Source: Lingula anatina (Eukaryota > Animalia > Brachiopoda). Taken from it: a stretch of DNA of 64,000 bases. Position numbers and translations under genes: made by a program. Below the pieces are notes generated by a model. That model ran no database searches. It saw nothing but the letters and a program-made list of their open reading frames with translations, and was not told the DNA's origin. The stretch is taken from contig CM120648.1 of the NCBI GenBank assembly GCA_051362555.1, positions 9,854,587 through 9,918,586 on the forward strand, in the 5' to 3' direction. Below, piece by piece: positions 24,804 to 55,065 of this stretch. Each line of letters starts with the position of its first letter. Within the stretch, counting starts at the first letter, position 1.

Positions 24804-24834
<31 letters not shown>

Positions 24835-30073: not shown

Positions 30074-33000
30074 TTACAGTCCACGGCAGTTTGGATAGGA
30101 AGATTTTGGCAGTGTGGCAAGGGCTTCGCTGCATTTGACGTGTCCGCCGGGAAATTTCATTGCTGGCAATGGAGGGTAGTACAGCTGGTGGTTCATGTCA
30201 CAGCATGGCTTGCATTGGTTGACGTTGACAAACTTGTGAACCTGGGGTGATAAACGATCGGAATAATTTTTAGAGAATGCATAAAATGTTGAAACAAATT
30301 TTGCAATTTTTCAGTGCCAAGAGTCTGTGGAAATTCTGTCCGCTACAGCACTTGAATTTCACATCTCTATGGCCCGTTTGTTTATTTAAATGCAATTTCT
30401 AAAATCTGTTTAAGTCCTGGATAAATGTACTGAAGTCCACCAATTTATTAGCGCCATCCGGTTTCTTTCCTTACGAATGAAATTCTTCACGCAGCATTTA
30501 TCTCAAAAAGTGACTAAAACCACAAGAGACCAACATGTAAAATCATGTTTCCCTAAAGTTTTTAGATATGAAAATCATGATTCTAGGACAATTCTCCCCC
30601 CACCCCGGACAATTACCCCCAAGACAACCCCCGGACGATTCCCAAGAAATATATATTAAAATACAAATATAAAGTTAATTAATATTAAATTCAAAACATT
30701 TCATCCAATTTATTAATATTTTTAGTGTGATAATACAGCTTCATCATTAAACAAATTACTTTATAAAAAATTCCTTTTTCGTTGAGTACAAGTGCAGAAA
30801 GTATTATTTAAAATCTAGTAAAAGTATAACTACCTTTCCTACAGGTATAGGTGGGGATATTTTATGAATATTTTCAGTGTGATTGGTAGTAGGTAGGTAA
30901 GTTGTAGTAAAGCAGTTAGGTGACAGATAATCAAAGGGATACCTAGATAAGCAGGAGTCTGTTTACCCCACCTCTCCCAGGAGATGCACCTTGATTCAAT
31001 GCTTAGGGGGTGGGGGGTAATGAAGCAATTAAACGTAACAATTAATTCATCGAAGGGTTACCTGAGAGGGAGATTATCTGTTTACTCCACTTTACCTGGA
31101 TATACAGCATTGGTCAAAAAAGTTGTCCCACCCCCATTTCCATGTACTTTTATTTACAAATGATCACCTCACAGCTGTAAATTGTTAGAAATAGTGCTTT
31201 TTATTACAGATACCGTGTCTAACATGATTAATGGTTTAAAAAATACAAAATAGTCGTGAAAATATACATATTTTATACCATTTAGTCAAATTTATAAGAG
31301 GTACCCCCTCACATCCACTGTTTCACTGTGACTTCTGTAGATGTAAAGAAATGTCTATAAAATTGAAAAGACGCCATCAAATGTCCCCAAATTCACAGAC
31401 AATTAGCATTAGGGTGTGCTCGTTAAAGATCGCGTGCCTAACAGCGTGTGCGTCTACCGCGTATGATTAGTTTTTGTTGGTGATCCGAATCAATAATCAA
31501 TCAATAATCAATAATAAAAAATATCGAAAATTTAGGAGTGAAACGGCATTGGATGGAGACTTTGCTGCCTTGGCGGAGGTCTGCACTCTCTGAGTGCTTT
31601 TCTAGTTTGTTTAATGGAATATTATATATTCTTCGGGGGGGGGGGGGGGGGGGGGGGTCGTCCGGGGGGAGAATTGTCCGTGAGGGATTGTTGGGGGGGG
31701 GTGTTGTCCTGATACCGAAAATCATCCCTTAATGATTAAGAGCCAAATGTTGCAATTTCCAGGATAAAGTTTAGATTTCTGCTATATAAGAGCCTGAAAG
31801 GCTGCTCGTGTGCCCTTAAATTCTTAACAAAAATAAAAAAGGTCCTCTTAACCTACCTCCATTTTCTTGCTACAGTCTGGCACGATCTCGTCAAATTTGT
31901 TGGTGGCAGTCTGGCACATGACTATGAACTGGCAGTGGCGGTTCCGGACAACACACTCTGGCTTCATGCACATGTTGCAAGAATCTTCCTGAATAATGGT
32001 CATGGCGGGGATTTCTCTCTTCTTACGGTTACCCTCTGCAAACAGAATTGACACAGTATTTAGTAAGAGACAAATGCATGTATAGGGGTGACCGGGGCTA
32101 GTTGCACCCCGGGGTAAGTTGGTCCCCCATCAATTTATGACAAAGTTACTATGGGGTAAATTTATTGATCACATCATTTTGTAAAGTGACCGTATCCAAT
32201 AGTGCTAAGAAAGCGTCGGCAGTGAGTCTAAATGAAATAATTTAGCATCTTAAAGTAAGTTTATTAAAGAGACTTGATGGGGGGCCAATTTACCCCCGGG
32301 GTCCAACTAGACCCGGTCTCCCCTATGCTTTGTTGCAGGGATCACATTTATCGTTGCTCAACCTACAACTGTCAGTTACAAAAAATGGCACTTGTAATAT
32401 ACAAACTGAAATGTAACAGATTTTGGTTAAAGAAAAGCTAGGAGGCGAATATTCACATGGCTCGACTGGTTCCATACGTTATCCCAGCAAACACATAACG
32501 TTATTATAACATTACCATAGTGTTAAATGGGTAAATTAACGTTATGATAACGTAATAATAGCGTTTTGTGTTTGTTGGAATTGTCTCAGTGCAGTGTCAA
32601 CTGTGTGATCACCCTTTTAGATATCAAAATATATAGTTTGGTTCTTACACATTTACACGTATGATAACTGATTCCACCGGTACTGTCATACCTCTTTCGT
32701 CAACGCTGAAGCTCTCCATCATCTTTTTAGCTCTGAATGTGGCGAAGTTCCTGCACTTGGGGATGAGATCCTCTGGCAGGAGGCTGTCTGGCTTCTGTGG
32801 GGTTCCCTCAATGCTGTAGTCGCTGGCCTGAATGCTGGCAACTGGCATGTCTCCCTGAAAAGAATATGGGAGGATAATCCAAACTTCTGATTTCTTAAAA
32901 CTTCTTAACACTATTTTAAAATAACCTTTGAAATGATTTTCAATGAGCATTTTGTTGCTTTTCTTTCAAAAATACAGTTTAAATGGCGAAATAGACAATT

Positions 33001-34113
33001 TTTCAATCCCTTTGCCTTCTTTTTGGAATAAAAATCTGTCCTTGGCCACGATTACTTATTTGTAGAGACAAATGTGCTTATATTTATGCCGTTCCTCCTC
33101 CAGGCCATTCTGTAACAGTCATTTCAATACCAGCAAACTGACGATAAATAGGCAAACAAACAAACAAACAGATAAAATAAATAAATAAATAAAAATTAAA
33201 CCTACGTCTTTCTCGGCCTCTTTGAGGGCGGTGACGGTGGTGTCTGGGTCCTGAACCTCGGTCTTGTCAAGAGGAGCCACATAGCAAGCCTTCTGCTCGG
33301 GGAAGATCATCACGGTCAGTTTCTGCAAGAAGCAAAAATTAAGTTTGTCAGCAAAAGAATTTCATCAGCTGTGTTATATTCTCACGGTAATAACAACCGT
33401 ATCTCCCCGAGAAAGTGTCTTATTAGGCTCTGACATATTGCACTGTTAATTGGAGTTTCGTTGTTGTTGGAAGAAACTACAATCGTTACTATACATTTGT
33501 CAATATAAAATGAATAAAAAAGTGTATTCTTTGTTGTGACATGAATATAATGAAGATAATGGAAACTCTACATAAATAAATAAATAAATAAATAAAAAGA
33601 AAATTTAAACTTACGTTCTTGAAGTCGTGGATAAATTCGGACTCGTCCACCTGATTGTGTTGAGGGACGTAGTAACTGACCAGTTTCCTGCCCTGATCTA
33701 CGTTGACCTTCTCTTGAACCAAGACGCCCTTTTCATGGGCGTGAACATTGAAATGCTGTCCAGAAAAATATACATGTGACTATACATTTGTAGCTGTTCC
33801 TTAAGCATTTGTAGAATAGAAAAGCTATAATTTAAGTTGACCTGCATTACAGAAACACTGAATTTTATTTGGTAGTGTTAATAAAACACTGGAGCACAGA
33901 GAACGTAGTGTCTCCTTTTTACAGTTTCACAATTTCCTTTCACAAGCGCGTTACCAAAGGCTAAGTACATCTGACAGCAGATACGCCTCAATGTCGATTA
34001 CTTACCTGCCTTCCAGGGATTTGATTCACTTTCATAGGTTTGCCCGGGGCCTTCGGTGGTGGAACGGCAACCGCCGCGACGAAAAAAAGAGCAAGAACAA
34101 CCACAGTCTTCAT
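30074..34113 (-). CDS. BRICHOS-furin-Cys-rich secreted precursor, copy B (291 aa)
   Basis: Exons 34113-34006, 33755-33615, 33322-33206, 32854-32692, 32035-31857, 30241-30074; all GT-AG, 876 nt, no internal stop. Signal MKTVVVLALFFVAAVA; BRICHOS hallmarks (IHDFKN, KACYV, PKCRNFATF); EGNRKKR; C-terminal domain with 11 Cys ending YPNCRGL*. Non-coding exon donor at 34677. Confidence 0.88.
30579..31716. mobile_element. Mutator-like (MULE) non-autonomous insertion, 1138 bp
   Basis: 9-bp direct repeat GAAAATCAT at 30570-30578 and 31717-31725; subterminal inverted GGACAATTCTCCCCC / GGGGGAGAATTGTCC; the homologous intron of copy E (~51910-51935) is empty. Confidence 0.75.
32085..32323. mobile_element. 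TA-flanked MITE (Tc1/pogo-type), 239 bp
   Basis: TA-GGGGTGACCGGGGCTAGTTG ... CAACTAGACCCGGTCTCCCC-TA; absent from the homologous intron of copy E (~52275-52290). Confidence 0.75.
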
Positions 34114-34676
34114 CTGGAATAAAATTAATCGAAATTTACCCAGTATATTTTCCTAAAATAGAAAATGGATAAAATTGATCTATTATATTTACTATCTTCC
34201 AAATATTCCATCATTATGGTATTTTGCTAAGGGATTGTAAACGATACCGTTATGTCTTTGAATGACTTTAAGATTCTTTTCTATATTACTTTAACACGTC
34301 ATTCGTTTTCAGCCATAAATTGTCATTAATTTTCCAAATATAATTACGAATGCTTTGGGTTTACAGCTAATTTTATTATTTTGAAGCAACTGATCTTTAA
34401 ATCTAATTTAATTTTGACATGCGCAAAGCTGCCAAAAACAAAAACACATTTTATAAGATTAAGTTCTTACAATAATTCTCTCTCCAAATTTAACAAATTC
34501 CTCTTGTGATGGCGTATATTGCAATGGCCACATAGTTAACATGTTTAAAAATAGAAAATTGCATAGTCTTTTTTATTAAGCACATTTATGACGTTCAAAA
34601 ATACACACAAGTATACCGGACTCTTCACTACTACCTATTTTCAAATGTATACACCCATGACAAAAATGATACCTAC

Positions 34677-35150
34677 CTCGGCACTCTGATTTAAGTCTTT
34701 TTAGTTTTACGCTTGGGTAGCAGTTGCTGAAGAAAGATCAATGGATGCCGTAGATTGAACGCCGAAAGTTTAAATATATACCTTGTACCAGGAAGACTTT
34801 TTAACCAACCAGATTCAAGTCCGGAACTACTCACCAAGGTTATCATAGGTGACATAACAAATGTTCTTGATATTGCGGTCTTATCGTCTCTTTTCTGAGA
34901 ATAGCTTCTATATCTGAATGACCAAATGTTTAAGCAAACGAAACGCACCTGGTGGGTAATAAAGTAAAGATAACGTCCCTTTATTTCTGTTGCAATACCT
35001 GTATACCAGGAAGCTTTAAGTTCAGCACCATGTTGATTTTCTAAAATTATACATGCGGTTAGTCGTCAATCACTTACGGGACACATGTACTAGTACCTCA
35101 CTGTATCTGGGTCGTTCGTACTCTTTGATCACAGGGGAAGCTGTAGTTTA
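34677..35150 (-). promoter_or_regulatory. Non-coding exon 1 and conserved promoter of BRICHOS copy B
   Basis: Donor GAG|GTAGGT at 34677; TATTTAAA on - at 34776-34769; upstream block alignable to those of copies C, D and E. Confidence 0.7.
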
Positions 35151-35877
35151 GCTTGTAATTTTATAAATGAAAGGAAACCGGCCAGTTTGTTCCTAAAATT
35201 TTGAAAATTGTCTCAGTTGTAAACGTTTCATAATCGACAATCAATGGCAAAACGCGAGAGTGCGCCGTGAACACGCCTTTTACACATCTGGCGTGGGCAC
35301 TTGCTCCTTCATTGCTTGCGACAAGCGTCTAAGATCACGTTTTTATTTTACGGCACCTTAAAATGGCACGTCTCACTTGCAAACTCAATGCAAACTCCTT
35401 GTGAGGGGAGCAAGTTACTGTGCACTTGCGGTTTCGCTGTTCGCCGAGAATTCTAGAGATTGTCGGGCATGTCCAACATCCTCCGTAACTACTTAATGTC
35501 GCAAGAAGGAATTACGTGGCACGTGCGTTTCTGCACACAGGGACCGTTGGAACTGAATATAAGTCGTATATGTGAAACAGAATATTCGTCATGTAAAAGC
35601 TTTTGACATCTGTAGAACGCATCCCGAAACAACAACCATCAAATACAATCAAGAACTGTTCAGATCGTGTCTAAAAGGAAATCGTGTTCTCTTTAATTAA
35701 CAGTGCGAATAAAAATGAACTTCATTATGGTAAATCGCTAACGATGTATTATCGTATCCATAGGCTCATTTTGATAGAAATGTCTACATAACTACCGTAG
35801 TGTTGTTTTTCCTTAACAGGATTTACTAAAGAGGATATTTGAAGAAAAGTATGTCTGAGACTTTTTTGGTTCCTAAT

Positions 35878-38800
35878 TTACAGTCCACGGCAGTTTGGAT
35901 AGGAAGATGTGGCCCTGTTAGCCATCATTTTGCTGCAGGTGATGTTTCCACCGGAATATCCAATTTGTGGCACTGGCGGGATATATACCTGGTGGTTCAT
36001 ATCGCAACATAGCTTACACCCGTTGACGTTGTAAAACTTGTGAACCTGGTATAATAAACAGTTGGAATAATTTTTAGAGAATGCATTAAATGTTGAAACA
36101 TATCTTGCAATTTATCAGTGCCATGAGTCTGTGGAAAATCTGCCCGCTGTAGCGCTTGAATTTCACACATACAATTATTAAGATCAATTTAGGTCCTAGA
36201 TGAATATACTTAAGTCCCACAGTTTATTAGCGGCATCATTTAAAACAGTATCTGATTTTTTTGGTAATGAATGAACTTCACCTTGCAATATCTATCTCAA
36301 AAAGTGACTCAAACCACAAGATACTCAAAATCGTGTGTCTCTGAAAAGGGTTTTGGATATGATAGTCACTCTTTGATTATTAAGAGCCAAAGGTAGCAAT
36401 TTCCACGAAAAATATAACAGTTATGCTATAGAAGTGCCCTAAATTTTGATAGTGGGCCTTTAAATTATTTTTACAATCGTCCTCTTAACCTACCTCCTGT
36501 TTTTTGGTACAATCTGGCACGGTCTCTCCCAAACTGTTGGTGGCAGTCTGGCAAATGACGGTGAACTGGCAATGGCGAGTCTGGACAACACACTCAGGCT
36601 TCATGCACATGTTGCAGGAATCATCCTCGATGACAGGTAAAGCGGGGATTTCTCTCTTCTTACGGCTGCCGTCTGCAAATTGAACTGACCATGGCCAGAA
36701 ATGTGCAGCATTTACGCGATACGCGAGGGCGCAACAGTAGGGCTTCACGTGACTCAACTAACCAATCACAGCATAAGAATGGCAACGCACACAGACTGTG
36801 ATAAGTGCTCAGCCCATTGTCAAGTAGTGTTACTTCATGGTAACAAGCGTCTGATATGTGCAGAGAAGTTTATTATTATAATATATATTGTTCTTATTGT
36901 TACATTATTAAATCTAACTCTGTATCCAAGTAGTAACTATACTGTACCAAGTCAGGTACTGATGATGTACAGAGGTCATATATTCCAGAATAAGCCATTA
37001 CCACTGATTTAAAACTTTCATTTTTGTTTAATATGTTATTCATGAAAGAGTTCATGAAAGATTATTTTATCTTGTTAAATCGTGATCTTATTCTTTTTAT
37101 ATTCAAATAATTGAATACTGTGGGTAAAATTGGTCTTCCACTTCTTATTTGCTTTTTTCCTTTACTACAAGATTATTTTGGAACAGTTGCAGCATTAAAA
37201 TGTTAAATAAATAGCAATCTGAAAGAAGAATTTTGCATAATTATTAAATGATGATAGGAATTTTGGATTAAGAGATTAGTTAAATACTGAGTAGTGATAT
37301 GGTCAGTCAATTAATGTAGAATCTGATAATATGATTGAAAATACTGATTGAATTCTTGGCCTTGCACTGGGCAGTTTTACATTTGTGCCAAGTGCTCTTT
37401 TTGGACTCCATTGTACAGTGGTAAAAAATCTTCAATTGCCATGAAATTTTTTAATCAGACTCTGTATGTTACTGCTATCAGCTGGTGCTATCGGCAACGA
37501 ATTAATTTCCCTTTGTTTCTGAGTGAATCTACCGTCTAAAATCACTATTACTGAAAATATTTGCGTTTTGCTGAGGGTAGTCTAGGCAATATACGGCAAA
37601 CTTCTTAGTACGTGTGTACAACAGAATTTTTTTAAAAACCCTAGCGATATTTGGTCAGGAGTTGCTTAAAGCATAGCACAACGTTGCTGTCTATCGGCAT
37701 CAGGCCGTTAGTTTGTCAATTCTCACGAATTACCCACGAATCGCGAACCCATTCATTTTTCTATGGCAATCTAGCAACTCATTAAAAATGCACGCATGCG
37801 CAGTGGGCTAGGCGTGACGCCATGCAGTGCATTTCTGGGGATGCAGAAAATAAAACCACAGCCATGTGGTGTGTGTGATACATGTGTGTGATATGATGCA
37901 GGATACACTTTAAACAATACTCACCTTACAGCTGCCGACAAAATAATGGTACATAAATACTAAATAAAAAAGTTTTTTTAAAAGGCGGGGATTTCCTACA
38001 GGAAACAAGCAGCCGGCGGGGCCGATCTAATGTGTTTTCCATACGCCATTTTCTCTGTGCAGTGTCATCGGTATTAAAACTCCTTTTGGATATCAAAATA
38101 AATATATAAATATAAACTGTTTGTTTCCCACAAAAAATTATTTTGCTGATTTCACCGGTGATATGTCCTACCTTTTTTGTCAACGCTGAAGCTCTCCATC
38201 ATCTTCTTAGCTCTGAAGGTGGCGAAGTTCCTGCACTTGGGGATAAGATCCTCAGGCAGGAGGCTGTCTGGCTTCTGTGGGGTTCCCTCAATGCTGTAGT
38301 CGCTGGTCTGAATGCCAGCAACTGGCATATCTCCCTGAAAATGTAAGTTTTGGGTAATTCAAAGGGTCGTCATTTCAGTCGATCTGATTACCCTGTAGGG
38401 TATTCAGCGCGTTATGTCGCCATACGCAGTAAATGCACAGAGTGTAAAATGCAAAGACCAACTGTTTTTGTAGATTTTAATTAGAAGCGACACAGATATA
38501 CTTGTTACATGTACATGTAACAACAGATATTTCTCTAAAGGCAAAGGCGAAGCAAGGGGTGGTAAATTGCCCGCTAGACAAAGAGTAGCCCATTCCCTAT
38601 TCTAGCTCATTCCCAAAATACAAGCGAAAATAGACAAAACCAAGCAAGTGCTCAACCGTCGTACGTTATATGTTATAATTATTACCCTTGTCATTTTATT
38701 GCAGGTTTATGGGGTCAACCATGTTTATCTTTTTGGCCCTACTACATTCGCATATTACTGGATCCACAAGCACTTACTGTGCGGAGAACAGTAATAATTA

Positions 38801-39887
38801 ACAATTTCTTCTTTCGCCATATGGGGACCCCTAAAATGCTCACTAAAAACCATAAAAAATCTATAAAGAATTTAAACCTACGCCCTCGGCTTCCTTGAGG
38901 ACGGCGACAGTGGTGTCTGGGTCCTGGACCTCGGTCTTGTCAAGAGAATCCACATAGCAAACCTTCTGCTTGGGGAATATCATCACGGTCAGGTTCTGCA
39001 AGAATTTAGATTAGGCAATTTTGTAAAGAAAATAATTTCATCACCTGGGATATGGGGCCATTGTTACAGTAAACGTTTTTTTTTTTTTAATCTCCCCGAA
39101 GAAAGTGTATTTTTAGATACTGACAGATTGGAGTTGTACTTATTGATTCGCTGTTGTTTGAAAACAGCAATTTCGTATAGTAGCATTAACCATTATAGAA
39201 TAAATAAAAGGGAGCGTTTTCAGATAGGTATTAGAAAATATGGCTTGGTCGTGAATTAAAACAATTGCCGGTCAGAAGCGAAAAATAATCAATTAGTTCA
39301 TTTATTCATCCCTTAGTACGTAGTGTTGTTTTCACTTACATTTTTGACGTCGTGGATAAATTTGGACTTGTCCACAAAGTTATTATTGTTATTGCTTTAC
39401 AGAAAATTAAACTTACGTTCTTGAAGTCATGGATGAATTCGGATTCGTCCACCTGGTTGTGTTGAGGGACGTAGTAACTGACCAGTTTCCTGCTCTGGTC
39501 AACGTTAACCTTCTCCTGGACCAAGACGCCTTTCTCATGAGCGTGAACATTGAAATGCTGTCGAAAATATTTTTATTATTCTTTTGCAGCTTTTACTTAA
39601 CCATTTCATAAAATAATAATAAAAAACTATGATTTAAGTTGACCTGACTAAAAGAATCATATTTCATTTTCTTTAGCAGAATTAATAAAGCACGAAGAAC
39701 GCAGTGTCTTATTTTAATAGCTTATTTTTCCTTTGAAATCAAGTAACCAAAGACTAATTATGTCTGATGCCCAAAAGAGAGGAGGAACGTTTCGATGGTG
39801 ATTACTCACGTGCTTTCCGGGGACTTGTTTCACCTTCATGGGTTTACCCTGGGCGTGCGGTGGTGGTACCACGAACGCAGCGACGAC

Positions 39888-39941
<54 letters not shown>

Positions 39942-39962
39942 AAGAACAATCATAGTCTTCAT
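35878..39962 (-). CDS. BRICHOS-furin-Cys-rich secreted precursor, copy C (305 aa as assembled; poly-Phe expansion in signal peptide)
   Basis: Exons 39962-39810, 39557-39417, 38995-38882, 38334-38172, 36672-36494, 36045-35878; in frame. DGSRKKR-EIPALPVIEDDSCNMC...VHKFYNVNGCKLCCDMNHQVYIPPVPQIGYSGGNITCSKMMANRATSSYPNCRGL*. A 52-nt T run (39889-39940) lies in coding exon 1. Confidence 0.82.
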
Positions 39963-40337
39963 CTAGAATAAAAATAGTTGTAAATAATTGATATCTTGCA
40001 AAAAGATAGAAAATGGATGGAATACCCAATACGTTCAGCAAAGCTGCCAAAAACTAAAATATTTTTTAGAAAATTAACCTCTAACAATAAACTTCAAGAA
40101 GGAATTACTGGACAAACTTCAAAAATGCGCTGGTGATCAAAGTATGTCGAAATGACATCTTTGTTATTTACTGTATAAAATTGGAAATGTTAATAGTTGC
40201 GCTGTCTTGTTTATTTAAGCACATCGGGGCCTACTGACGTTCAAATTATAAACACAATACAGTGCAGCGGACTATTTATCATTATTATGTTCGAACTTTT
40301 TTAAAAATGTCCTTACCCATGAGAAAATAATCCCTAC

Positions 40338-40820
40338 GTCTGTACTCTGTTTTAAGTCTTCTTAGTTTTACGCTTGGGTAGCAGTCGATAAGTTAAGATC
40401 AATAGATGCCGTGGATCGAACGCCGAAGGTTTAAATATATGTATGCTTTATATCAGGAAGACTCAACCAATCAGATTCAAGTCTAGGATAACTCACCAAG
40501 GTCTTATTTTGGGACATGTTAAATGCTATTGGCATTGCGGTCTTATCATATCTTTTTTTTTCTGAAAATAGCTTCTATATCTGAATGACATGAGTGTTTT
40601 TATCAAACGAAACGTCCAGGAAAGGTGGAAGTTACTGGACGAAATGACCCCCTGGTTGAAAGTAAAGATAATGCCTCTTTATATTTGTTGCAGTACCTGT
40701 ATACCAGGAAGCGTAAAGTTCATCACCATGTTGATTTTCTAAAATTATATAAAACGGTTTGTCTTCAGTGACTTAGGGGACACATGCACTAGTACCTCCC
40801 TGTATCTGTGTCGTTCGTAA
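40338..40820 (-). promoter_or_regulatory. Non-coding exon 1 and conserved promoter of BRICHOS copy C
   Basis: Donor GAC|GTAGGG at 40338; TATTTAAA at 40437-40430; CCAATCAGA, CCAAGGTC and CTTATC motifs at positions shared with the other copies. Confidence 0.7.
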
Positions 40821-41213
40821 AAACAGTGTTATATATAGCCTTTCACATGTAGCACACGTATAGCTTTTCAAGGTTCTCACAGAAGAAAATGTAAGACATT
40901 TTTAGCACTAGTGTTACAGATTTAGCGATGTGTTAAGCTTCACCGACATAAGACTAAGTTTATCATAAGGCTATACACATTGGCTAAGCTCTTCCCTTGC
41001 TAAGCGCGTGGAGCTGCTAAACGCGTGGAACTGCTTAACGCTGGAAGCAGCCTGCTCGGACACTTAGTGGACTTCCTTGCAACAACTTGTTACTATTCTA
41101 AATATACATTGTAGCAGGGAAGCAATGGCTAAAACCCCCATACGAGCCTAGGCCTGGGCCACGTGTTCGGTCTACTGTGGTATAAAGGTGTATTTCTATT
41201 CTGATTCCTTATT

Positions 41214-41369
41214 CAGGCCTACCCAACTAACAGACTCGGCACCTACGGATCCAGAAATGATCCCTACCTCTGAAATGATCTTGAAACACCTTGAAAACGG
41301 GTAGTGTGGTCTGATATACCGGTTCTTTCTGGATCCGTAGGTGCCGAGTCTGGTAGTTGGTTAGGCCTG
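41214..41369. mobile_element. 156-bp hairpin MITE with 5-bp target duplication
   Basis: ~44-bp TIR CAGGCCTACCCAACTAACAGACTCGGCACCTACGGATCCAGAAA and its near-perfect complement; TTATT at 41209-41213 and 41370-41374. Confidence 0.8.
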
Positions 41370-41949
41370 TTATTAATGTCTTCAACTATATGTTTTTACT
41401 TTAGACCATGATAACTGGTAAGTAGAAAGCATTACATTCATAGGCAGATATATAGGATTTTGGAAAGGGTGGGTTCCAACCTCCAGAAATTAGAATAACA
41501 ACTTAAAAGAGGTCCTCACTTCCAAAATTTAGATAAACTTGAGAAGCCATTCATTTTTGAAGATGTGGTCGCCAGCATCCACCTTTATCGGATGACCTTG
41601 TGGTTATGCCCCTATTTCACACAGACCACGATTCCCACGAATCGCCAGGAATTGACAAATTTCAGGATTCATGAGGATTCGTGAGATTTAGCAAATTTTC
41701 TGGCCTAATTCGATACGCTCTACGATTCAGTTACGGTACAGGTGCGATAGTGTTACGAATATTCATGGGATTCGGCTGGAATCGCAGGAATATTGTCAAG
41801 AATTCACTACGAATAATTGAAGAAAGAAGAGGCAGAACTATTGACCAGGGCACACTAAGACGAGTTTCTGAGGAAAAGTTTTATCCGTTTTATTATAGAT
41901 CCTTCATAGCCGAAGAATTCAAAGTTTTTTTTGTGATAAAACCCTAAGC

Positions 41950-43265: not shown

Positions 43266-43676
43266 TTTACGGATGAAATGTTTTTGTCTTCTGTTATCAT
43301 AATGATTCATATAAGGAGCAATGAAATTTCTACCAGTTGGAAAAACGTTTATTTTGTTTTGGCAAATATCCAAATCAGCACAGGTCACACTTGTACGACA
43401 AAAATTCATTTTAATTGTATTTACCTTTGAGTTCGGCTCACTCATCAAAAATTAGAAAGACGCTATCTGCAATACTAAATTAACGTTTTGTTACGTTAAA
43501 AGAACGCCAACGACATTATGATTATAGTGCAGTAGAATAGGTTGCTAAAGATGTATCGTCACATTCACTGGTTAATTTTGAAGTAATGCCAGTGCTCTTT
43601 TCTAAACAATTCTTCATTATATCGTATGTGGTAATTAGAGAAAATTTTGAGGCTTATTTCCCCAAGTTTACTGTCC

Positions 43677-46600
43677 TCAGCAGTTTGGATAGGCAGATTT
43701 TGGCAGTGTGGCAATGGCTTCGCTGCATTTGATGTGTCCACCGGGAAATCCTGGCATTGGTGGGTAGTACAGCTGGTGGTTCATATCGCAACATGTCGTG
43801 CATTTAAGGACGTCGGAGAATTTATGTATCTGGAGCAATAAACAATTGGAACGTTATCAAGAGAATGTATACAAATGTTTACTGCTGGTTTACCATATAA
43901 ATGTGACTGGGGGGATTGAATGGGATTGACTGGAGGGGATTTCGATCCGCAAAGTTTTTGGATTGGACTCCAAAATAAATGGGTTCAGGTCAAAGCAAGT
44001 ATTAGCGCCCTCGGTTAATAAGTTTCTATTTTTCTCTTACGAATAACAACCACCCGTCATTATCTCACAAATGTGCCCAAAAATCTCGGAACTTAGAACC
44101 CAAATCGTGCTGCTGTACAGTTTTAGATATGAAAAAATTAATGATGACGAGAAAATGTTGCAAAATACAGGAAAATAAACAATTGCGTATTTTTGTTTTG
44201 TAAATATGACATTTTTTATGGTGGCTGATTCGGGACGTCGTAATATCGATTCGTTTAATGGGACGCGATTTTGCGATACCACGATAGCAGGATGCGATAT
44301 CAGGATAGCAGGATGCGATACCACGATAGCACGATGCGATATCACGATAGCACGATGCGAAATCACGACAGCACGATGCGATACCACGATAGCACGATGC
44401 GATACCACGCTTTCACGATGCGATATCACGATGGGATACTACGATAGCACGATGTCCCGAATCAGCCACCATTCATTTTAGCCTACCTCTTGTTTCTTTG
44501 AACAGTCTGGAATTTGACCTCCATATTTGCTGTCAACCATATCGCACATAACAATGAATTGACAGCTGCGACCCGAGACGACACACTGTACCTTTCTGCA
44601 CGGTTCGCAGGAATCGCCCTCGATGATGCTCATGGCGGTGGGTTTACTAGATCTCTTCTTACGGTTTTTGTCTACAAATTGAATGGACAAAACTAAATTA
44701 CAGACATAAACATGTGTATATATACTATACTTTGTTTGCAGGAAACACTGCCACCAATGCTCACCCCAGATGTCAATGAAGGCACCTATAAGTCACCTAA
44801 CAAAGGTTCTTCTATTATAAGCAGAAATTAACTAAGTTCAGATATTGTGAATTCACAATTTAGTTTTAATCAGACAGAAAAAAGACAAGAGATGCATTCT
44901 TTGTCACCCGAATTCAAATGGAAAGATCAGTAGAAGCCCAGAGAGATCTATAAACGTGTTTCATAGATTATTCAAAGGTATTTGAGTAAAACACGAAGAA
45001 TTTTTCAAAATATCAGCACAGTTGAACCAAGATGGCAAAGGCCTAAGGGATTCTTTAACTCCAGGAACATGAAGCAGCAATCAGATAGACGGTGAAAGCA
45101 GTGAATTCAAACCAATCTGTACACGAGTGATATAGAAATGAGCGTTGTCACCCGATCTCTTTAACATCTACACTGAAATGATTCTCCGCATCATTTATGA
45201 TCATGATCTATGATCATAATTGGCAGAATATCAACAACAGATCGGCTAAAATAAGGTCCTATATAAGTCCGATGTGGGATAATGCAGCGGGGTTTGCTGA
45301 TAGTAGGCCACAAAATGGGCAACGTTTTTAGAGATTAAAAGTTTCGAAAATTAAAATCCAGCCAATCTTCATAAGCACTAAATTTATTCCAAATAGGGTA
45401 AAATATTACAGGTGTATATAGGCTCAAATATGTAGATTCAACAACAGACCGCTATGTACACAAAGTACCCATGAAATAGACTAGCCAATATGAAACCAAT
45501 CAGGGACCCAGATTAGACCACAGATTGCAACCTCTTCCCAGATCTGCCCAGCAAGCCCACTAGTGAATTGTACATGTACAGGCATCAATTAACATATTTG
45601 CGGCGAAATGTGTCCAGTAATAATAAATATATTTATGTGTGTGTTTGTGGGTGTGGTTGGAATATTTCCAATAAATGCAGATGTAACCTTATCACTGTAA
45701 CGAAAAAAATGTGCTACACGTGCATATTGCTTTAAGAGAAGATATGCTGTGCTGAACATTATTTTGCTACTCTCTGAATACCTTTTCTCTAGAAAAATGT
45801 AACAAGTTTCTTAGTTTTGCAAAGTTCATACACGACAATTCTGAAGAGCGCATTTCATATTAAATGTCAAGTCTGTAAAATGCCAAAAGTGTTTTCCATA
45901 CGTAATTGTCTTTGTGTTGTGTCAACCGTGTAAAACTCTTTTTTAGATATCAAAATAAACACGAAAACCAGGCATAGCCTACCTAACTAATTTCACCGGT
46001 TCTGTCATACCTTTTTCGTCAACGCTGAAGCTCTCCATCATCTTCTTAGCTCTGAAGGTGGCAAAGTTCCTGCACTTGGGGATAAGATCCTCTGGCAGGA
46101 GGCTCTCTGGCTTCTGCGGGGTTCCCTCAATGCTGTAATCGCTGGCCTGAATGCCTGCAACTGGCATATCTCCCTTAAAAGGAAAGTTTTTGGTAATTCA
46201 CGTATAATTTTGATTTCTTAGTACTTGGTGTAATTTTGACCACACATAGCGCCTCTATAAAAACGTATGTATTGAATGTAAAGCTAGCAGAATGCGATTA
46301 TCTGTCACTTTTGTACTGTAGATATAATGCAAGGCTGACACTTGCACGACTTTTATCCCCGATTTTGTCGTGGCAAGGCGTGCCATTTTGGGGCACGAAG
46401 TGGGAGGCTCCCGCACTGTTCCCGACTAGTTCACGCATAGTTCACGACGAGTTCACGGCGAGCTAACGAATAGTTTACAAATACGTGCCCACATTGACAC
46501 GAACTGCCACGTCAAGTACGCGCATAGTTTGCGCATGGTTTACGCACTTCCCGCATTGGCACGACGGGTTTGAGCAATTTGGACGGTGCCGTGCCGACTT

Positions 46601-48012
46601 CGGTACGCAATATACGTGAACTGATCGTGAACTATGCGTGGCAGTTCGTATCAGTCGTGGCATGCCTCGTACTGCCACGTACTGGCACACATCCTCCCGC
46701 ATCGTCCCGTCGTGTTCACGACGAGTCACGAACAGTTTGCGCATAGTTCACGACTCTGTCGCGAAATTATGTCGTGGCCAAACATTTCAAAATTCTCGTC
46801 CCGACATGGCACGTAGTCACGACGGGTTTACGCACACTTCTGTCTCTAAAGCAATTGTATGTTTACGAGCCAAATATGTTTATTTTTTTTGGCTTCACTC
46901 GATTCGCAAAATACCGGATCCACCATCGGAAGATTGGCTTGGGGAAGACTATTACTCACTTCTTCCTTCCCCATGTGGTCACCCCTGAAAAACGCTCGTC
47001 TACAACGAAAAAATACAAACTTAAAGACTTTAAACCTACGTCTTTCTCTGCCTCTTTAAAGGCGCTGACGGTTGTGTCTGGGTCTTGGACATCGGTCATG
47101 TCAAGAGGGGTGACGTAGCAAGCCTTCTGCTTGTAGAAGATCATCACAGTCAGTTTCTGCAAGATGTCAAAAAAGGCAAGTCTGTGAGCTGTTTTATGAT
47201 CCCACATTTACAATGTGTCTGAAATCTCCCCGGAAAAAAGTTTTTTGTTAGATTCTGATTCTGATTCTGGGTGTGGTAACTGCTGAATTGCTATTGTATG
47301 GAGAAAGCATGGTCGAAGCATTTGTTATTATACAACGGATACTACTCTTAGATAAAGTGAATTGCATTGTGAATTGAAGCAGTTGCTGACCGAAAACCAA
47401 CTAAAAAACTATAACTACAAAAACAATGCGGTTCTTTACTTATTTATTCAGCCTTAAGTCATAACGTAGTGTTGTTCTTAAAGTCGATGTTTGATGACTC
47501 CAAATAAATATACAAAAAGTTAATGCTTACGTTCTTGAAGTCATGGATGAATTCGGACTCGTCTACCTGGTTGTGTTGAGGGACGTAGTAACTGACCAGT
47601 TTCCTGTTCTGGTCAACATTAACCTTCTCCTGGACCAAGACGCCTTTCTCATGAGCGTGAACATTGAAATGCTGTCAAGAAAAAAAGTACATTGCAGCTG
47701 TTCCTTAACCATTTTAACAATAGAAAAGCTATTATTTAAGTTGGCCTGCCTTAGGGAAACATTGAATTGTATTTGCTGCTGTTAATAAAACACTGGAGCA
47801 CAGAAAACGTCTTTTTGTCACAGTTTCACCATTTTCTTTCACAAGCGAATAACAAATAGCCTAGTATATCTGACGATAGGAACGCCTAAATATCGACTAC
47901 TTACCTGTCTTCCGGGTACTTGGTTCACTTTCATGGGTTTACCCTGGGCGTTCGGTGGTGGAACGGCAACCGCAGCGACGACAAAAAGTGCAAGAACAAC
48001 CACAGTCTTCAT
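43677..48012 (-). CDS. BRICHOS-furin-Cys-rich secreted precursor, copy D (288 aa; most divergent mature domain among intact copies)
   Basis: Exons 48012-47905, 47671-47531, 47156-47040, 46173-46011, 44671-44487, 43829-43677; in frame. DKNRKKR-SSKPTAMSIIEGDSCEPCRKVQCVVSGRSCQFIVMCDMVDSKYGGQIPDCSKKQE-IHKFSDVLKCTTCCDMNHQLYYPPMPGFPGGHIKCSEAIATLPKSAYPNC*. Confidence 0.88.
44218..44472. mobile_element. TIR element with internal 21-bp tandem repeats
   Basis: ATGGTGGCTGATTCGGGAC ... GTCCCGAATCAGCCACCAT enclosing about 8 copies of GCACGATGCGATA(C/T)CACGATA; explains the repetitive ORFs 44037-44429 and 44206-44481. Confidence 0.8.
44880..45240 (+). mobile_element. Non-LTR retrotransposon reverse-transcriptase fragment (RTE-like)
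   Basis: DYSKVF (~44967) and LSPDLFNIYTEMILR (45145-45189) resemble non-LTR RT motifs; frame is broken. Confidence 0.55.
46330..46835. mobile_element. GC-rich repeat insertion, probably a truncated MITE, in an intron of copy D
   Basis: CpG-rich block with repeated CACGAC/GTCGTG motifs; absent from homologous introns of the other copies. Confidence 0.5.
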
Positions 48013-48820
48013 CTGAAATAAAAAGTAATCGAAAATATGATTAACCCATTATATCTTGCTAAAAATAGAAAATGGATAGAATTTTATTATATTTATTATC
48101 TTCCAAATATTCTATCATTATGATGAAATTTTTAAAATATCTGTCAAGATAATATTTGATGTTTTTTTCAGTAATTCGATCCATATACATTTAGTTGGCT
48201 AGAGTTGTGTACTTTGAGCAGCTCATCTGAGCACAATGACAGGCCATGTGTACAGACGCAGCGCATGCGCTGTAGCAAAACAAATTGCAAATTGCAACAA
48301 ACTGCAAAAACTAGTTGAATCAGTGCCTCGAAAAAATGATGAAAAAATGATTGTAAACGACCCAGCAGTGCCTTCGGATGACTGTCATTCTACGTTGTTC
48401 CTTTAACATGACATTTGTTTTCACCCATAAGTTGTCATTCATTTGCCAAATATAAATTCGAATACAATGAGTGTACAGCTATTGATTTTTTTTATCATTT
48501 TGAAGCAATATATCTTACGATTTAATTTGGACACGAGCAAAACTGCCAAATATAAAAAGACATTTAATTAATTTTATAACTTCTTACAATAATTATCAAG
48601 AAAGAATTACTCGCCAAATAAAAAATATGCTTTGGCGATGAGGATGTCGGAATAGCCACATTGTTAATTATTGTATAAAAACGGAAAACTCTATAGTTGA
48701 GCTCTCTTTTTTATTAAGCACATTTATGACGTTCAAATATACCCACAAGTATACCGGACTCTTACAATTAACTATTACCTATTTTCAAATGTATACACCA
48801 ATGACAAAAATGATCCCTAC

Positions 48821-49320
48821 CTCTGCACTCTGTTTTAAGTCTTCTTAGTTTTACGCTTGCGTAGCAGTCAATAATTAAATATCAATAGATGTCGTGGAAC
48901 GAACACCAGGGGTTTACATTTATACCTTGTATCGGGAAGTCTTTCAACCAATCAGATTCAAGTCCGGAAAAACTCACCAAGATCATGATAGGTGACATGA
49001 TAAATGCTGTTGGCATTGCAGCCTTATCGTCTCTCTCTTCTAAGAAAAGCGTCTATATCTGAATGACATGAATGTTTAAGCAAACAAAATGCACCTGGTG
49101 GGTAATAGTTACCGGACAAACTGGCCCCTGGTTGAAAGTAAAGATATTGCCCCTTTATGTTTGTTGCAGTACCTGTATACCAGGAAGCTTAAAGTTCAAG
49201 ACCATGTTGATTTTCTAAAATTATAGAAACGGTTAGTCTGAAATGACTTACGGGACACATGCACTAGTGTCCCCTGTATCTGGGTCGTTCGTACTCTCCG
49301 ATCACAGGAGAAGCTGTTGT
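48821..49320 (-). promoter_or_regulatory. Non-coding exon 1 and conserved promoter of BRICHOS copy D
   Basis: Donor GAG|GTAGGG at 48821; TATAAAT on - near 48924-48918; CCAATCAGA, CCAAGATCA and CTTATC motifs aligned with copies B and C. Confidence 0.7.
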
Positions 49321-50607
49321 CTTGTTAGATATAAAATTTGAAAAAGTGTTAGATGATAATTATTAAATTGGAAAGCGATAGATCTGTATTTTTAACTTAA
49401 TTATGCAAAGGAAATGATTTTTCTGGATATTTCAAGTTGTTTGCCTTCACACCCCGCAAATACATGTGTAAGAAAATAAAAAAATAAAATAAAATAATAA
49501 AAATGAAAATAAAAAATATATTCAAAAGCGACATTAGTACATTGTATCAGAGATATTCGTACTCTCTGACCACAGGAGTCGCTGTTTCAGCCAGTTACAA
49601 GAAAATGCTAGAATATATATTGCAAAGTAATAGTGATCTACAGACTTAAAATTTTACAGGGTTCTAAATTTTAAGCACTCCTGTAATCTATGTATATAGG
49701 GCCTACTCACTTGGGAAATAAGTGTCACCAGTAATGCAATGCGTAAAATGATATAGAAAATCACGTTTTTTATTTAATGTTTTTTATTTAATTTTTAAAA
49801 GCATTTTCCATAAAAATTTTACTGATAACATGAATAAGCTTACGATAAAAAATTTAGGATCGTACGTCCCCTGCGAATGCTGGGTGCAGTAGAGGCCGTG
49901 GAGGTCATAAAGGTAGAGGCAAGGCATTGGTCGCAATCAGTCGTATGGTCTGTTTGTGCCCAAATATATGAAAATTGAGCTGTTCAAGTTGTACAATCGA
50001 CAATCACTGCCAAAACTCGAGCGTTCGCCTTGAGTACGCCTTTTATACTCCTGGCATGGGGGCTAGACCCCCCCACCCGGTGTGTTCGATTACGTGCGTA
50101 AGTTATGCGGGCATTCCCCGTTCTCAACATACAAAGGGTACTTGCTACTTCATTGCTTGGTACGAGCGTCTTATAATAATTATTTATTGAGCACGAAGAA
50201 ATGGTTCACATTTACAGGCTTTCTAACTAATACTAATATAAAATAATAATTTAAGTAGTTAACTATGCTCATCCACGCAGGGATACACGCTTTTTAATTG
50301 CACGGTTTACAAATTTACATATGGCGCTCACACTCTGAGCAGAGAGTGGATTGAGTAAAATAGGCGCATGTAGTTTACTGTCTGTAGGACCCTGCAAGTT
50401 CATATCTGGTATGCAGGCGAACAGTATTTCCTGTTATGTAACGTTTTTTTCACGGAACCTTTAAAAATAGCACGCCTCACTTGTGAACTCCTTTCAAACT
50501 CCTTGCGTGAGGAGCAAGGTAACTGTACACCTGCGGCCTCGTTGTTCGCCGGGCATGCCCAACATCCTCTGTACACGCTTACGGGCTGTCTGCGAACTCA
50601 AAGAAAC

Positions 50608-50825
50608 CATTCCCACAGATATTTAGATCGATCTATCCCCCTGGGGAGTCTCACTAGATTGCTGTCAGCTAAACTGGCTTAAATGTCTGTCCCGGCTTCT
50701 AAAAGCTGTAAGGGGTAATTAACTTTGTGTGCGCTCGGCTCCCGGAAGCTGGCAGCAATTTAGCGTGAAACCCCAGGGAGTTAGGTTGATCCCGATGGAT
50801 CGATCTAAATCTGTGAAAACCCAGT
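50608..50825. mobile_element. ~210-bp MITE family, copy 2
   Basis: Near-identical to 10914-11124; the paralogous spacer at ~35480-35510 lacks it. Confidence 0.75.
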
Positions 50826-51441
50826 CAAAATGTCGCAAGAAGGACTTTCGTGGCACGTGCGATTCTGCACTGCCGGTTGAGACCGAGACTTAATTCACAT
50901 ATGTGAAATAGAAAATTTGTCGTGTGGTAGCTTTTGAAATGTGCAGAAGGTATCCCAAAAATTGAAATCAAACAAATATTTTTGTCAAAGCTGTTCAAAT
51001 CTTGCCCAAAAGGAAACCTTGTTCTCTTTTATTAACAGTGCAAATGAAAATGGCCTTCAGTGCAGGAACAGTATATAGACGATTATATGACGAGCTACTA
51101 GACTGGTATTTCTTTTGTTTTGTTTCCCGTTGGGTCACGTCAGTTTTTGGCTGAAATTATAAGTTTAAATGATCTTTACATAGTAAAATAAAATAAAAGT
51201 CTGCAAAACTAAACGTTTTATTGTTTGAAAAGAACAGGTCAAAATCAGGAATAATGACATTGTTGTACAATATAGTAGATCGCTAACGATGTATAATCAC
51301 ATTCATTAGCTTATTTTAATGTCCAGATAACTCATAGGGTTTCTTTCCTAAATAATTAAGTTTCATCGAAGACAATATTTGAAGAAAAGTACGTCTCAGT
51401 CTTTAATTATTATTATTAATTTTTTTTTTTTGTTTCCAAAT

Positions 51442-53871
51442 TTACTGTCCACGGCAGTTTGGATAAGAAGATTTGGCCTTGTTTGCCATCATTTTGCTGC
51501 AGACGATGTTTCCGCCGGGATATCCGATTTCTGGCATTGGCGGGAAATACACCTGGTGGTTCATGTCGCAGCATGGCTTACACTGGTTGACGTTGTAGAA
51601 CTTGTGAACCTGGTAAAATAAACAGTGGGAATAGTTTCTATAGAATGCATAAAATGTTATCTTGGAACTTATCAGTGCCATGAGACTGTGGATATCCTGT
51701 ACTCTAAAGCGATTAAAAATCACACCTCTAGGGGCTCCGTTTGTCTTTATTTTGAAAATAATTTCTGGACAGCGCCCTCCATTTAAAACAGTTTCCATTT
51801 TTTCGTAACGAATGGAATTCACCATGCAGTATCTATCCCAAAGAGTGACTCAAACAACTAGATACTTGGAACTTCAAAATCGTGTCTCTTTGAGAAGTTT
51901 TTTTTAAAGATATGATTATCATGCTTTAATGATTAAGGGTTAAATGTCGCAATTTCCAGGGGAAAAAATATACCTTTCCTACTATGCAAATGCCCTAAAG
52001 ATTGAACAGGTGCCTCTAAATTCTTTACAAAAAGAAAAAAAACGTCCTCTCAACCTACCTCCTGTTTCTTGCTACAGTCTGGCACGATCTCGCCAAATTT
52101 GTTGGTGGCAGTCTGGCACATAACGATGAACTGGCAATGGCGGGTCTGGACAACACACTCTGGCTTCATGCACATGTTGCAGGAATCATCCTCAATTATG
52201 GTCATAGCGGGGGTTTCTCTCTTCTTGCGGCTGCCGTCTACAAGCAGAATTGACAGAAAATTAAGTCACAGACAAGCGTGTAAGTATGCTTTTTTTTGCT
52301 GGAATCACATTCCTCAGTGTTCAACCTACAGCTGTCAATTACTAAAATGGCACTTATATATTAACTGAAATGTAACAGGTAATGGTTTTAGAAAAGGAAG
52401 GGGGAATATTTACACGAAATTGGCCCAGCAAACATAGAGCGTTATCATAACGTTACCACAGCGTTTAATGGTTGAATTAACGTTGTGGTAACGCTTTTTT
52501 GTTTGTTTGTTGGGATTGTCCCAGTGCAGTGTCAACTGTGTTATCACCTTTTTAGATATCAAAAATAGTTTGGTTCTTACTAAACTACATTACTGATTTC
52601 ACCGGTGATATGTGTTACCTTTTTCGTCAACGCTGAAGCTCTCCATCATCTTCTTAGCTCTGAAGGTGGCGAAGTTCCTGCACTTGGGAATGAGATCCTC
52701 TGGCAGGAGGCTGTCTGGCTTCTGTGGGGTTCCCTCAATGCTGTAGTCACTGGTCTGAATGCCGGCAACTGGCATGTCTCCCTAAAGAGGACATGGGCGA
52801 TAGATTCACACATCTGATTTCTTAAAACTTCTCGATACGGCTGAGTAATTTTAAATTTATCTTTGAAGTTATTTTCAATGAGCATTTGTTTTTGTTTTGA
52901 AAACTACCTGGTGATGACATAGAGTAGAAATGTGATAATCTGAAACGTTTAAAAGATTTGAAAAGATTTTGATTTTGATTTGATTTAGATTGGTTGGCAC
53001 AGAAGTGCACTGTTTACGTGTAATGTATAACTAATTTTTTTCGCTGTACACATATACCTGTAGATGTAATGGGTAAATTTAATGGCGGAACGAGTCCAGG
53101 AAAGAGGGTAACACTCTCACCAACTTACTTTCTTACTACTTCTTCCCGACTTCTTTCCAAAATTACAGATTAAAAGGCGAAAATAGACAGTTTTTTAATC
53201 CCTGTGCAAATGTTTTATAAAAAAATGTGTCCTTGTCCACGAATTTTTTATCTGTATTTTTATCTGAATTTGTTTATCTCTATGCCATTCCTCCTCTACG
53301 CCATTCTAAAACAGTAAAATACCAGCAAAATGTCGAAAAATAAAAAAAAAATTAATAAAAATAGATAGATACATAGATAGATAAAAAAGAAACCTACGTC
53401 CTTCTCGGCCTCCTTGAGGGCGGCAACGGTGGTGTCTGGGTCCTGGACCTCGGTCTTGTCAAGAGGAGCCACATAGCAAGCCTTCTGCTTGGGGAAGATC
53501 ATCACCATCAATTTCTAAAAGAAAAAAATAATAAATAAAAAATTAGAAATAAATAAAAATGCAAGTTTGTGAACAAAAGAAATTCATCAGCTGTGAAAGT
53601 TTTTTTGGTAGATACTGAAAAATTGGAGAGGTAATTAGAGATTCGGTGTTGTTTGGAGAATGCATTATCTTAACTTTAAAATACATTCGTCATTATACCA
53701 TGACTGACCGGTATTAACCTTAAATTATTGATACATTGCTGACCAAAGACTAGGAAAAAAACGCCATAGCTACAACAACAATAATACCAATGTTACTATT
53801 TATTCGTTTGCCCAACCATAAGTTATCACTTAGAACTACATGTATTATTTTGGATTGGCGAGAACTCTTAA

Positions 53872-53914
<43 letters not shown>

Positions 53915-54532
53915 AAAAGAAAGTTTAAACTTACGTTCTTGAAGTCATGGATGAATTCGGACTCGTCGACCTGGTTGTGTTGAGGAACGTAGTAACTGAC
54001 CAGTTTCCTGCCCTGGTCAACGTTGACCTTCTCCTGGACCAAGATTCCCTTCTCATGAGCGTGAACATTGAAATGCTAGAGAGAAAAAAAAATATCTGAT
54101 TATGCACTTGCATGTGTTCCTTTATCATTTAAAGAAACAGAAAAGTCATTGAAAGTAGAGCCTTAGTTTGCCTGCGTTAATAGGTGATCGATTGCTTTGG
54201 CAAAGGCAATAAATCACTGGATAATTTTCATGTGTAGTATTCATGTCTGCCATGAGATGTCAGCTTAATCTCAAGTGATATTTTGTTTACATTAATGCCA
54301 TATCTAAACTTATCTGTAAAGGGGTCATTCACGCAGTTAAATTTCCTTTGTAGGCGCGTAACCAATGGCTTAGTAAAGCGGACTCCCGAAAAAGGGCAGT
54401 AACGTCTCGATGGTTATTACTCACGTGCTTTCCAGGGACTTGTTTCACCTTCATGGGTTTACCCTGAGCGTGCGGTGGTGGTACCGCGAACGCCGCGACG
54501 ACACAAAGAGCAAGGACGATCAGAGTCTTCAT
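51442..54532 (-). CDS. BRICHOS-furin-Cys-rich secreted precursor, copy E (291 aa)
   Basis: Exons 54532-54425, 54075-53935, 53514-53398, 52781-52619, 52237-52059, 51609-51442; 876 nt, intact. MKTLIVLALCVVAAFA...DGSRKKR-ETPAMTIIEDDSCNMCMKPECVVQTRHCQFIVMCQTATNKFGEIVPDCSKKQEVHKFYNVNQCKPCCDMNHQVYFPPMPEIGYPGGNIVCSKMMANKAKSSYPNCRGQ*. Confidence 0.9.
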
Positions 54533-55065
54533 CTGGAAATGAGGGAAAGATTGTCTGTATAATACTTAATGGACGATAACAATATCTTTATCTTTATCTA
54601 ATATCTAGTCTTAATCAATTAAAGGGATAATAACTCTTTGTTTTGGCCAAAAAATGAATTTTCCTGGAGTAAACAACAATTTTCCCATACTTACCAATGG
54701 TTAATAAATCCATTTTTACATTCAAAGTTAGTCCCTGTTTTTTTTTTTTTTTCTAAAAACTTTGTTTTTTTGTTATGATCTCTTAAGAGATTATAACAGA
54801 ATATAGCCATCAATGGAGGTCACGTGGTCTAAAGACAAGCTCAGATATCAGAATAATAGCTATAACTGCCGTTTTTGTGGGAAAACAGGATATATCACAT
54901 TTCTGTGAGTTGTTCACAATGTTTTTATTGTGAAATATAGATAGAGTTATTATTCCTTTAAACGGTCCATCCCATAATTGATAAACAGGTTGGTTATTTC
55001 AGACACAAGTCCACCCTCTCATGGAGGGCATCCCCAATAACTCCATGTAATCAAGCTCTAACAGA

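Follow-up and report, generated by a model that had tools for sequence, protein, structure and literature searches.

A tandem cluster of BRICHOS precursor genes with divergent cysteine-rich tails in the brachiopod Lingula anatina

When the members of a duplicated gene family share a conserved pro-region and differ in their mature region, is diversifying selection the cause? This question is raised by five tandem paralogues, designated A to E, that were identified by self-comparison on the minus strand of a 64,000 nucleotide (nt) stretch of the Lingula anatina genome (GenBank assembly GCA_051362555.1, contig CM120648.1, positions 9,854,587-9,918,586). This entire stretch is referred to here as the window, and all coordinates below are positions within it. 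The copies encode precursors that consist, in order, of a signal peptide, a BRICHOS region (coding exons 2-4), an R-[KR]-K-R site and, in exons 5 and 6, a tail that carries 11 cysteines within 105-108 residues. A reading made from the DNA letters alone (the sequence-only reading) had proposed that divergence is concentrated after the furin-type site, with diversifying selection as one explanation and gene conversion as another. We consider it fairly probable that the tail divergence in this cluster of BRICHOS/furin-type/cysteine-rich precursors arose through looser purifying selection together with uneven, exon-sized swaps between copies.

Divergence and selection across the exons

GT-AG exon models were built for A-E, and each copy was found to have six coding exons with identical phases. 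Among copies B-E, 21/140 amino acid columns are variable in exons 2-4 versus 57/109 in exons 5-6 (Fisher p=3e-10), so the contrast between pro-region and tail is real. Its boundary is less sharp than had been proposed. Exons 2 (2/47 variable columns) and 4 (6/55) are indeed almost invariant, as had been claimed for exons 2-4 together, while exon 3, which lies within BRICHOS, varies at 13/38 columns and is not significantly below the tail (p=0.06). Exon 1 varies at 14/36 columns (p=0.18 versus the tail). As the variability of exons 1 and 3 comes close to that of the tail, divergence is not confined to the region after the furin-type site. The motifs quoted in the sequence-only reading were all found on the minus strand: relative to copy E, QGRKLVS...FKN has 3 residue changes in A, 0 in B and 1 each in C and D, and LLPEDL...KMMES is identical in all five copies. 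CNMCMKPEC of exon 5 is common to B, C and E, and copy D alone makes much of the exon 5 contrast. The retention of every cysteine holds for B-E, in which all 11 tail cysteines are present with a spacing of 2-4-6-5-13-14-2-0-22(20)-14, and fails for copy A, in which exon 6 is frameshifted.

Selection was analyzed in B-E only, using the Goldman-Yang codon model with F3x4 frequencies and a separate tree for each exon; copy A was left out of the codon-model tests except for one per-exon check. Exons 5-6 exceed exons 2-4 in amino acid divergence (dN) by a factor of 6.3, which is the product of a 2.5-fold higher synonymous divergence (dS; tree lengths of 1.64 and 0.66, respectively) and a 2.5-fold higher dN/dS. 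Estimates of the latter ratio range over 0.12-0.14 for exons 2-4 and 0.31-0.33 for exons 5-6, and two ratios (0.124 and 0.331) fit the data better than one (p=0.0024 when kappa is shared; p=0.008 when D is excluded). The partitioned comparison therefore came out in the direction anticipated by the sequence-only reading, with a higher ratio in exons 5-6. The gene conversion or age alternative that it had offered explains approximately half of the contrast (the 2.5-fold difference in tail dS and the conflicting exon trees described below).

Diversifying selection itself is not supported, for three reasons. First, tail dN/dS is well below 1: a value of 1 is rejected (twice the log-likelihood difference, 2dL=30), all 6/6 pairwise tail ratios among B-E fall within 0.29-0.50, and the ratio is still 0.37 once cysteine codons are removed. 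Second, the site models detect no class with dN/dS >1 in the tail (M1a/M2a, M7/M8 and M8a/M8 all give 2dL=0.0); under M1a, 63% of sites are at 0.13, 37% are at 1 and none are above. When data were simulated along these trees, the M1a/M2a comparison recovered selection in 23/27 cases with 15% of sites at dN/dS 4 and in 13/21 cases with 25% of sites at 2.5. Because of this power, strong recurrent positive selection would probably have been observed, while weak or episodic selection would not have been detected. Third, no branch is significantly above 1 in a free-ratio analysis; three branch estimates exceed 1 (p=0.15-0.43) because their dS is near zero. A conserved pro-region joined to a variable mature region thus need not mean positive selection, and half of the contrast observed here is synonymous age.

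Probable exchange between the copies

The exons of these genes do not share a single history. Copy B is placed with D by exons 1 and 6 (9/11 and 18/22 informative sites, respectively), while exon 5 sets B beside E and contains 46 changes that are private to D. The dS of B exon 5 is 0.29 to E and 0.86 to D; B exon 6 is about equally near E and D at silent sites and shares its 18 informative sites with D. A single tree with exon-specific rates was rejected (2dL=101, 20 degrees of freedom), and the conflict between the exon 5 and exon 6 trees (2dL=41.6) was reached by 0/207 null simulations (largest value 23.3). This rejection of a common tree for exons 5 and 6 makes it likely that the copies are mosaics of exons, and the groupings above suggest that copy B likely combines an E-like exon 5 with D-like exons 1 and 6. 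Copies C and D differ at 3/27 synonymous sites in exon 2 and 20/36 in exon 5 (p=0.0004), and introns 2, 3 and 5 of D are mostly unalignable with those of the other copies. Judged from the alignments, this combination of exon 2 closeness and intron divergence is the pattern that would be expected of an old copy with homogenised conserved exons. Intron 5 of D also contains a 21 nt tandem repeat (7.7 copies, 44272-44432).

A further mixture, differing from those of the window, is seen in P0002/P0003 of the RefSeq individual, in which exon 2 is nearest to A (4/47 differences, compared with 11-12 for B-E) and exon 6 is nearest to E (1/55). The P0003 mosaic may be real or may be a gene-model artefact.

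We propose that gene conversion or unequal crossing-over would keep exons 2 and 4 alike, these exons staying homogenised because they are still similar enough to pair. The diverged tail exons would mostly escape conversion and would occasionally be swapped whole, as in the E-like exon 5 and D-like exon 6 of B. Once set, the tail of each copy would be held by purifying selection.

Several results weigh against this interpretation. The estimates are noisy because there are only four intact copies, the excess of dS in the tail is not significant without copy D (p=0.08) and the table of informative sites is borderline when taken alone (p=0.07-0.08). There is no long identical conversion tract among the copies (the longest is 63 nt), and for this reason the exchange is judged to be old and is inferred from tree conflict. 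Part of the dS gap could also reflect mutation rate or synonymous constraint, because the silent alleles listed for copy E lean to exons 5-6 (12/~69 sites, compared with 4/~60 in exons 2-4; p=0.11). If the whole gap were of this kind, no exchange would be needed: dS in exons 2 and 4 would be lowered by mutation rate or by codon use and splicing signals, and the dN gap would reflect relaxed constraint. The lean of the silent alleles and the lack of long tracts fit such an account, as does the somewhat higher GC content at third codon positions in exons 2-4 (0.63-0.78, compared with 0.50-0.67 in exons 5-6 of B-E). However, one tree with exon-specific rates is precisely what was rejected, and differences in rate would not place B near E and far from D in exon 5 while giving it the informative sites of D in exon 6. 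We regard an explanation lacking exchange as quite improbable.

The remaining points against our interpretation come from polymorphism. Among the 40 of 133 variant rows listed, 22 read variants fall in the coding exons of copy E; all are silent, and 12 of these are in exons 5-6. The tail of E therefore has 0 replacement and 12 silent changes among the listed variants, compared with 23 and 19 between E and C (p=0.0005). The Lingula anatina protein P0001 is identical to copy E at 289/291 residues, with both differences in BRICHOS and 0/114 in the tail. This contrast of polymorphism with divergence is also what adaptive divergence between copies gives, and it is the best remaining support for that process. 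The tail would then be a defence or toxin-like effector that, on the model of conotoxins, cathelicidins or mussel MgCRP-I, was fixed in each copy by adaptive bursts following duplication and is now conserved, and the 2.5-fold higher tail dN/dS and fixed cysteine frame are in keeping with this. We nevertheless consider such bursts unlikely. The site-model comparisons were all null despite power of 23/27 and 13/21, no branch is significantly above 1 and the six pairwise tail ratios reach only 0.29-0.50. In addition, a relaxed phase after duplication gives an identical polymorphism contrast, and the variant evidence is drawn from 40 of 133 rows, outside of which lies at least one replacement allele, K117T in BRICHOS, present in P0001 and in loose-end reads of RNA run X16. 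The listed variants of copy E argue against balancing selection on its tail.

Gene models, transcripts and neighbouring elements

The sequence-only reading had placed five copies within 30074-54532. This range covers four of them (B-E), and copy A (22776-26626) falls outside. Copy E is intact and encodes 291 amino acids (aa) at 51442-54532 (exons 54532-54425, 54075-53935, 53514-53398, 52781-52619, 52237-52059 and 51609-51442). Copy D, also intact (288 aa), lies at 43677-48012 (exons 48012-47905, 47671-47531, 47156-47040, 46173-46011, 44671-44487 and 43829-43677); its stop codon (43677-43679) is 3 codons before that of B, C and E, right past the last cysteine, and the former end is still readable beyond it. 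Copy C has an open frame at 35878-39962 (exons 39962-39810, 39557-39417, 38995-38882, 38334-38172, 36672-36494 and 36045-35878). Its first coding exon contains an in-frame run of 52 T residues (39889-39940) that gives a poly-Phe signal region; this homopolymer could stem from misassembly or from genuine lengthening of the run. Copy B is intact (291 aa) at 30074-34113 (exons 34113-34006, 33755-33615, 33322-33206, 32854-32692, 32035-31857 and 30241-30074). In copy A (exons 26626-26519, 25436-25296, 24957-24841, 23999-23837, 23528-23353 and 22909-22776), exon 6 is 34 nt short and the frame is lost past the CC motif; A is likely a pseudogene.

Three RNA runs (X13, X16 and X19) were mapped to D-E and two (X16 and X19) to A-C. 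The splice joints 54075/54425, 52237/52619 and 51607/52057 of copy E were observed in both X16 and X19, with depths at exon 6 sites of ~280 and ~1,650 reads, respectively, while copy E was essentially absent from X13. Reads with loose ends at 54534 (91 in X16 and 1003 in X19) match 55810-55830, identifying an additional non-coding 5' exon of E at 55810-55890 (minus strand, start approximate) that is spliced directly to the ATG. Using BLAST, a homologous 5' exon and promoter stretch was found upstream of B, C and D, and no homologue of this exon was found for A. For copy D, spliced reads of its own were observed in X16 alone (43829/44487, 11 reads; 46172/47039, 14 reads).

Reads on A-C are mostly cross-mapped from E, and exon 2-5 depth on these copies was therefore not counted as their expression. 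In X16 and X19, there was next to no RNA from exons 1 and 6 of A or from exon 6 of C (bin depth ~1). Both runs contained B-like exon 6 reads (~65 for X16, 120-150 for X19), yet letters found solely in exon 5 of the window's copy B were almost absent. Indirectly, this suggests that in the sampled animals the exon 5 spliced to a B-like exon 6 is more like that of E. In X19, an A-like exon 2 is preceded by a C-like exon 1 in 183 reads and followed by a B-like exon 3 in 331, pointing to a variant or sixth copy absent from the window. These joints lie at 39810, 25296-25436 and 33322, and the variant resembles P0002/P0003.

Could the cluster instead be an artefact of uncollapsed haplotypes or mis-joined contigs? 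The 52-T run in C may be a homopolymer error, and the protein collection contains only two such genes from RefSeq annotation. Yet the proteins of the copies are just 68-88% identical to one another and the introns have diverged. Furthermore, run X2 stems from another study, and its contigs span the introns of D and E with 0-3 differences; stretches specific to single copies of A, B and C are present in X1 and X3 (although X1 may be the window's own source); and D and E each have their own spliced reads. An assembly artefact is thus largely refuted, and we consider it highly improbable.

Other elements in the window include two inverted arms (15825-16356 and 18934-19304; 232 nt, 92%) flanking a paired-box/helix-turn-helix-like open reading frame at 17221-17607 on the plus strand, which by its structure is likely a Tc1/mariner-type transposon remnant. 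An unbroken 350-codon frame at 19207-20259 (plus strand), beginning within the right inverted arm, has a DUF268 match (E=6e-34) and a weak methyltransferase domain match. A broken Tc3-type transposase (PF01498, E=7.5e-12) lies at 20679-21656 on the minus strand. Very high-copy interspersed repeats are located at ~27250-27850, 50600-50820 and 54620-54800 (DNA-run contig depth of 1e4 to 1e5). A repeat piece at 27194-27434 is translated as the C-terminal extension of P0003; this extension is likely a gene-model error. The upstream part of the window contains a 76 nt tandem repeat (11507-11705) and a G-rich 90 nt repeat (13141-13313).

The precursor, its cargo and known systems

The proposed architecture of a BRICHOS pro-region, convertase motif and cysteine-rich cargo was supported. 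The first 16 residues are hydrophobic in all copies (the signal peptide was judged by eye). In copy E, the BRICHOS region spans 52619-54075 (exons 2-4) and includes Asp80, Cys96 and Cys156; it matches PF04089 in Pfam (38.8 bits, cut-off 25; E=1.1e-9) and the BRICHOS chain of ITM2B (E=0.0017), with an HDF motif that aligns with the ITM2B HDF. C96 and C156 are kept in all five copies, and the described features of BRICHOS include two conserved cysteines and an Asp after strand 2 (PMC9714404). At the start of exon 5, a predicted proprotein-convertase (furin-type) site reads RKKR in B-E (copy E residues 180-183, 52218-52229) and RRKR in A. From this motif, the tail is likely released by a furin-type protease, and the BRICHOS domain is likely its folding chaperone: BRICHOS would fold the cysteine-rich tail and the protease would then release it.

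The copy E cargo (51445-52217, 108 aa, net charge +1) comprises six cysteines from its exon 5 part and five from exon 6. Across the tails, net charge is 0 to +2, the isoelectric point is 7.0-8.1 and the grand average of hydropathy is -0.25 to -0.45. With this charge and a length of 105-108 aa, the likeness to antimicrobial peptides that had been suggested is weak. The eleventh, odd cysteine would allow an inter-chain disulphide.

Relatives of the tail were sought by sequence and by structure. An exon 5 profile (the first half of the tail) found two proteins among 354 candidates, both from Lingula anatina, and other homologue searches gave only P0001 and P0002; these searches were word-filtered and are weak for distant relatives. 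When the exon 5 profile was run unfiltered, only P0002 was found among 1,835,955,588 representatives. In the Atlas, P0001 lies near BRICHOS and OAF (Out at First) clusters (0.92-0.93), and there was no usable match for the tail. Exon 5 and exon 6 profiles found nothing useful among PDB sequences and show no resemblance to each other, and there was no OAF_N or OAF_C Pfam match at E-values up to 10. The mean pLDDT confidence score was 35.5 for the full-length AlphaFold model and 61.7 for an exon 5 model, and strands were predicted with low confidence. This exon 5 model had 0/132 Foldseek matches at E<=0.001 and 0/48,161 chains at Z>=2; such nulls are no evidence for a new fold. Searches of the literature, mostly without subscription papers, found no paper on these brachiopod proteins, and a brachiopod BRICHOS cluster with an orphan 11-cysteine cargo has apparently not been described previously. 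In one supplement of the Lingula genome paper, the strings BRICHOS, PF04089, ITM2, tenomodulin, chondromodulin and gastrokine are absent (PMC4595640), which neither supports nor excludes a shell-matrix role.

Once released, the tail would likely be an extracellular effector that is rich in beta structure and stabilised by disulphides. For its role, we tentatively favour host defence or a mucus function exerted by binding and not by cationic membrane lysis, without regarding this as established even on balance. A structural or cross-linking protein appears less likely, and a signalling ligand is more doubtful again. The strong expression of copy E in some samples, its absence from another and the lack of any detected relative of its cargo make it well suited to a functional test.

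How does this cluster compare with known systems? In conotoxins, the pro-region is conserved and the mature region varies around a fixed frame of cysteines. Cathelicidins likewise have a conserved pro-region and a variable mature region (PMC10745061). A further parallel is mussel MgCRP-I, which, like the Lingula copies, is a duplicated family with a conserved pro-region, a variable mature region and a fixed cysteine frame (PMC4558851). In contrast to Lingula, with its five loci and null result in the equivalent test, MgCRP-I has dozens of loci, no BRICHOS and significant positive selection at nine sites (M1 versus M2).

Among BRICHOS proteins, OAF shares with the Lingula copies a signal peptide, a BRICHOS domain, a convertase site and a long disulphide-rich mature domain. 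The mature domain of OAF has four disulphides in 70 aa and has been conserved between flies and humans (PMC9714404), whereas the Lingula tail is lineage-restricted and duplicated, with 11 cysteines in 108 aa. The annelid peptides arenicin, alvinellacin, capitellacin and nicomicin have the same precursor layout as the Lingula copies. Mature peptides of this type are, however, short, cationic and amphipathic (18-54 aa for the HfBRI peptides other than the two discussed below; PMC10745061), unlike the 105-108 aa Lingula tail with its charge of 0 to +2. Preproalvinellacin resembles the Lingula cluster in being a tandem multigene family with five introns in the coding gene and documented intergenic recombinants, and it is the only other BRICHOS precursor family that we found to have been studied in this way. 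The paper on this family describes in Alvinella a monomorphic peptide with a diversifying pro-region, which is the reverse of the pattern between Lingula copies (PMC5431198).

The nearest described look-alikes of the Lingula tail are HfBRI-75 and HfBRI-91 of the polychaete Heteromastus filiformis, two non-cationic BRICHOS cargoes with 11 cysteines whose function is unknown. Like the Lingula precursors, these have a signal peptide, BRICHOS, a basic cleavage motif, exactly 11 cysteines, a long, non-cationic mature part and low AlphaFold confidence (PMC10745061). Their mature parts are 75 and 91 aa, compared with 105-108 aa in Lingula, and the exon 5 profile did not match any protein of this kind. 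The Lingula cluster extends BRICHOS precursors with a long disulphide-rich cargo to the brachiopods. A bolder proposal, which we hold to be unlikely, is that these are the first brachiopod members of an unrecognised lophotrochozoan class of BRICHOS-chaperoned, non-cationic, 11-cysteine effectors that includes HfBRI-75 and HfBRI-91, with the two cargo exons reshuffled as separate modules between tandem copies to give a small combinatorial repertoire that differs between animals, in place of an arms race by point mutation. Should the Lingula tail prove homologous to HfBRI-75 and HfBRI-91, it would mark out a family for which specialists have offered no explanation.

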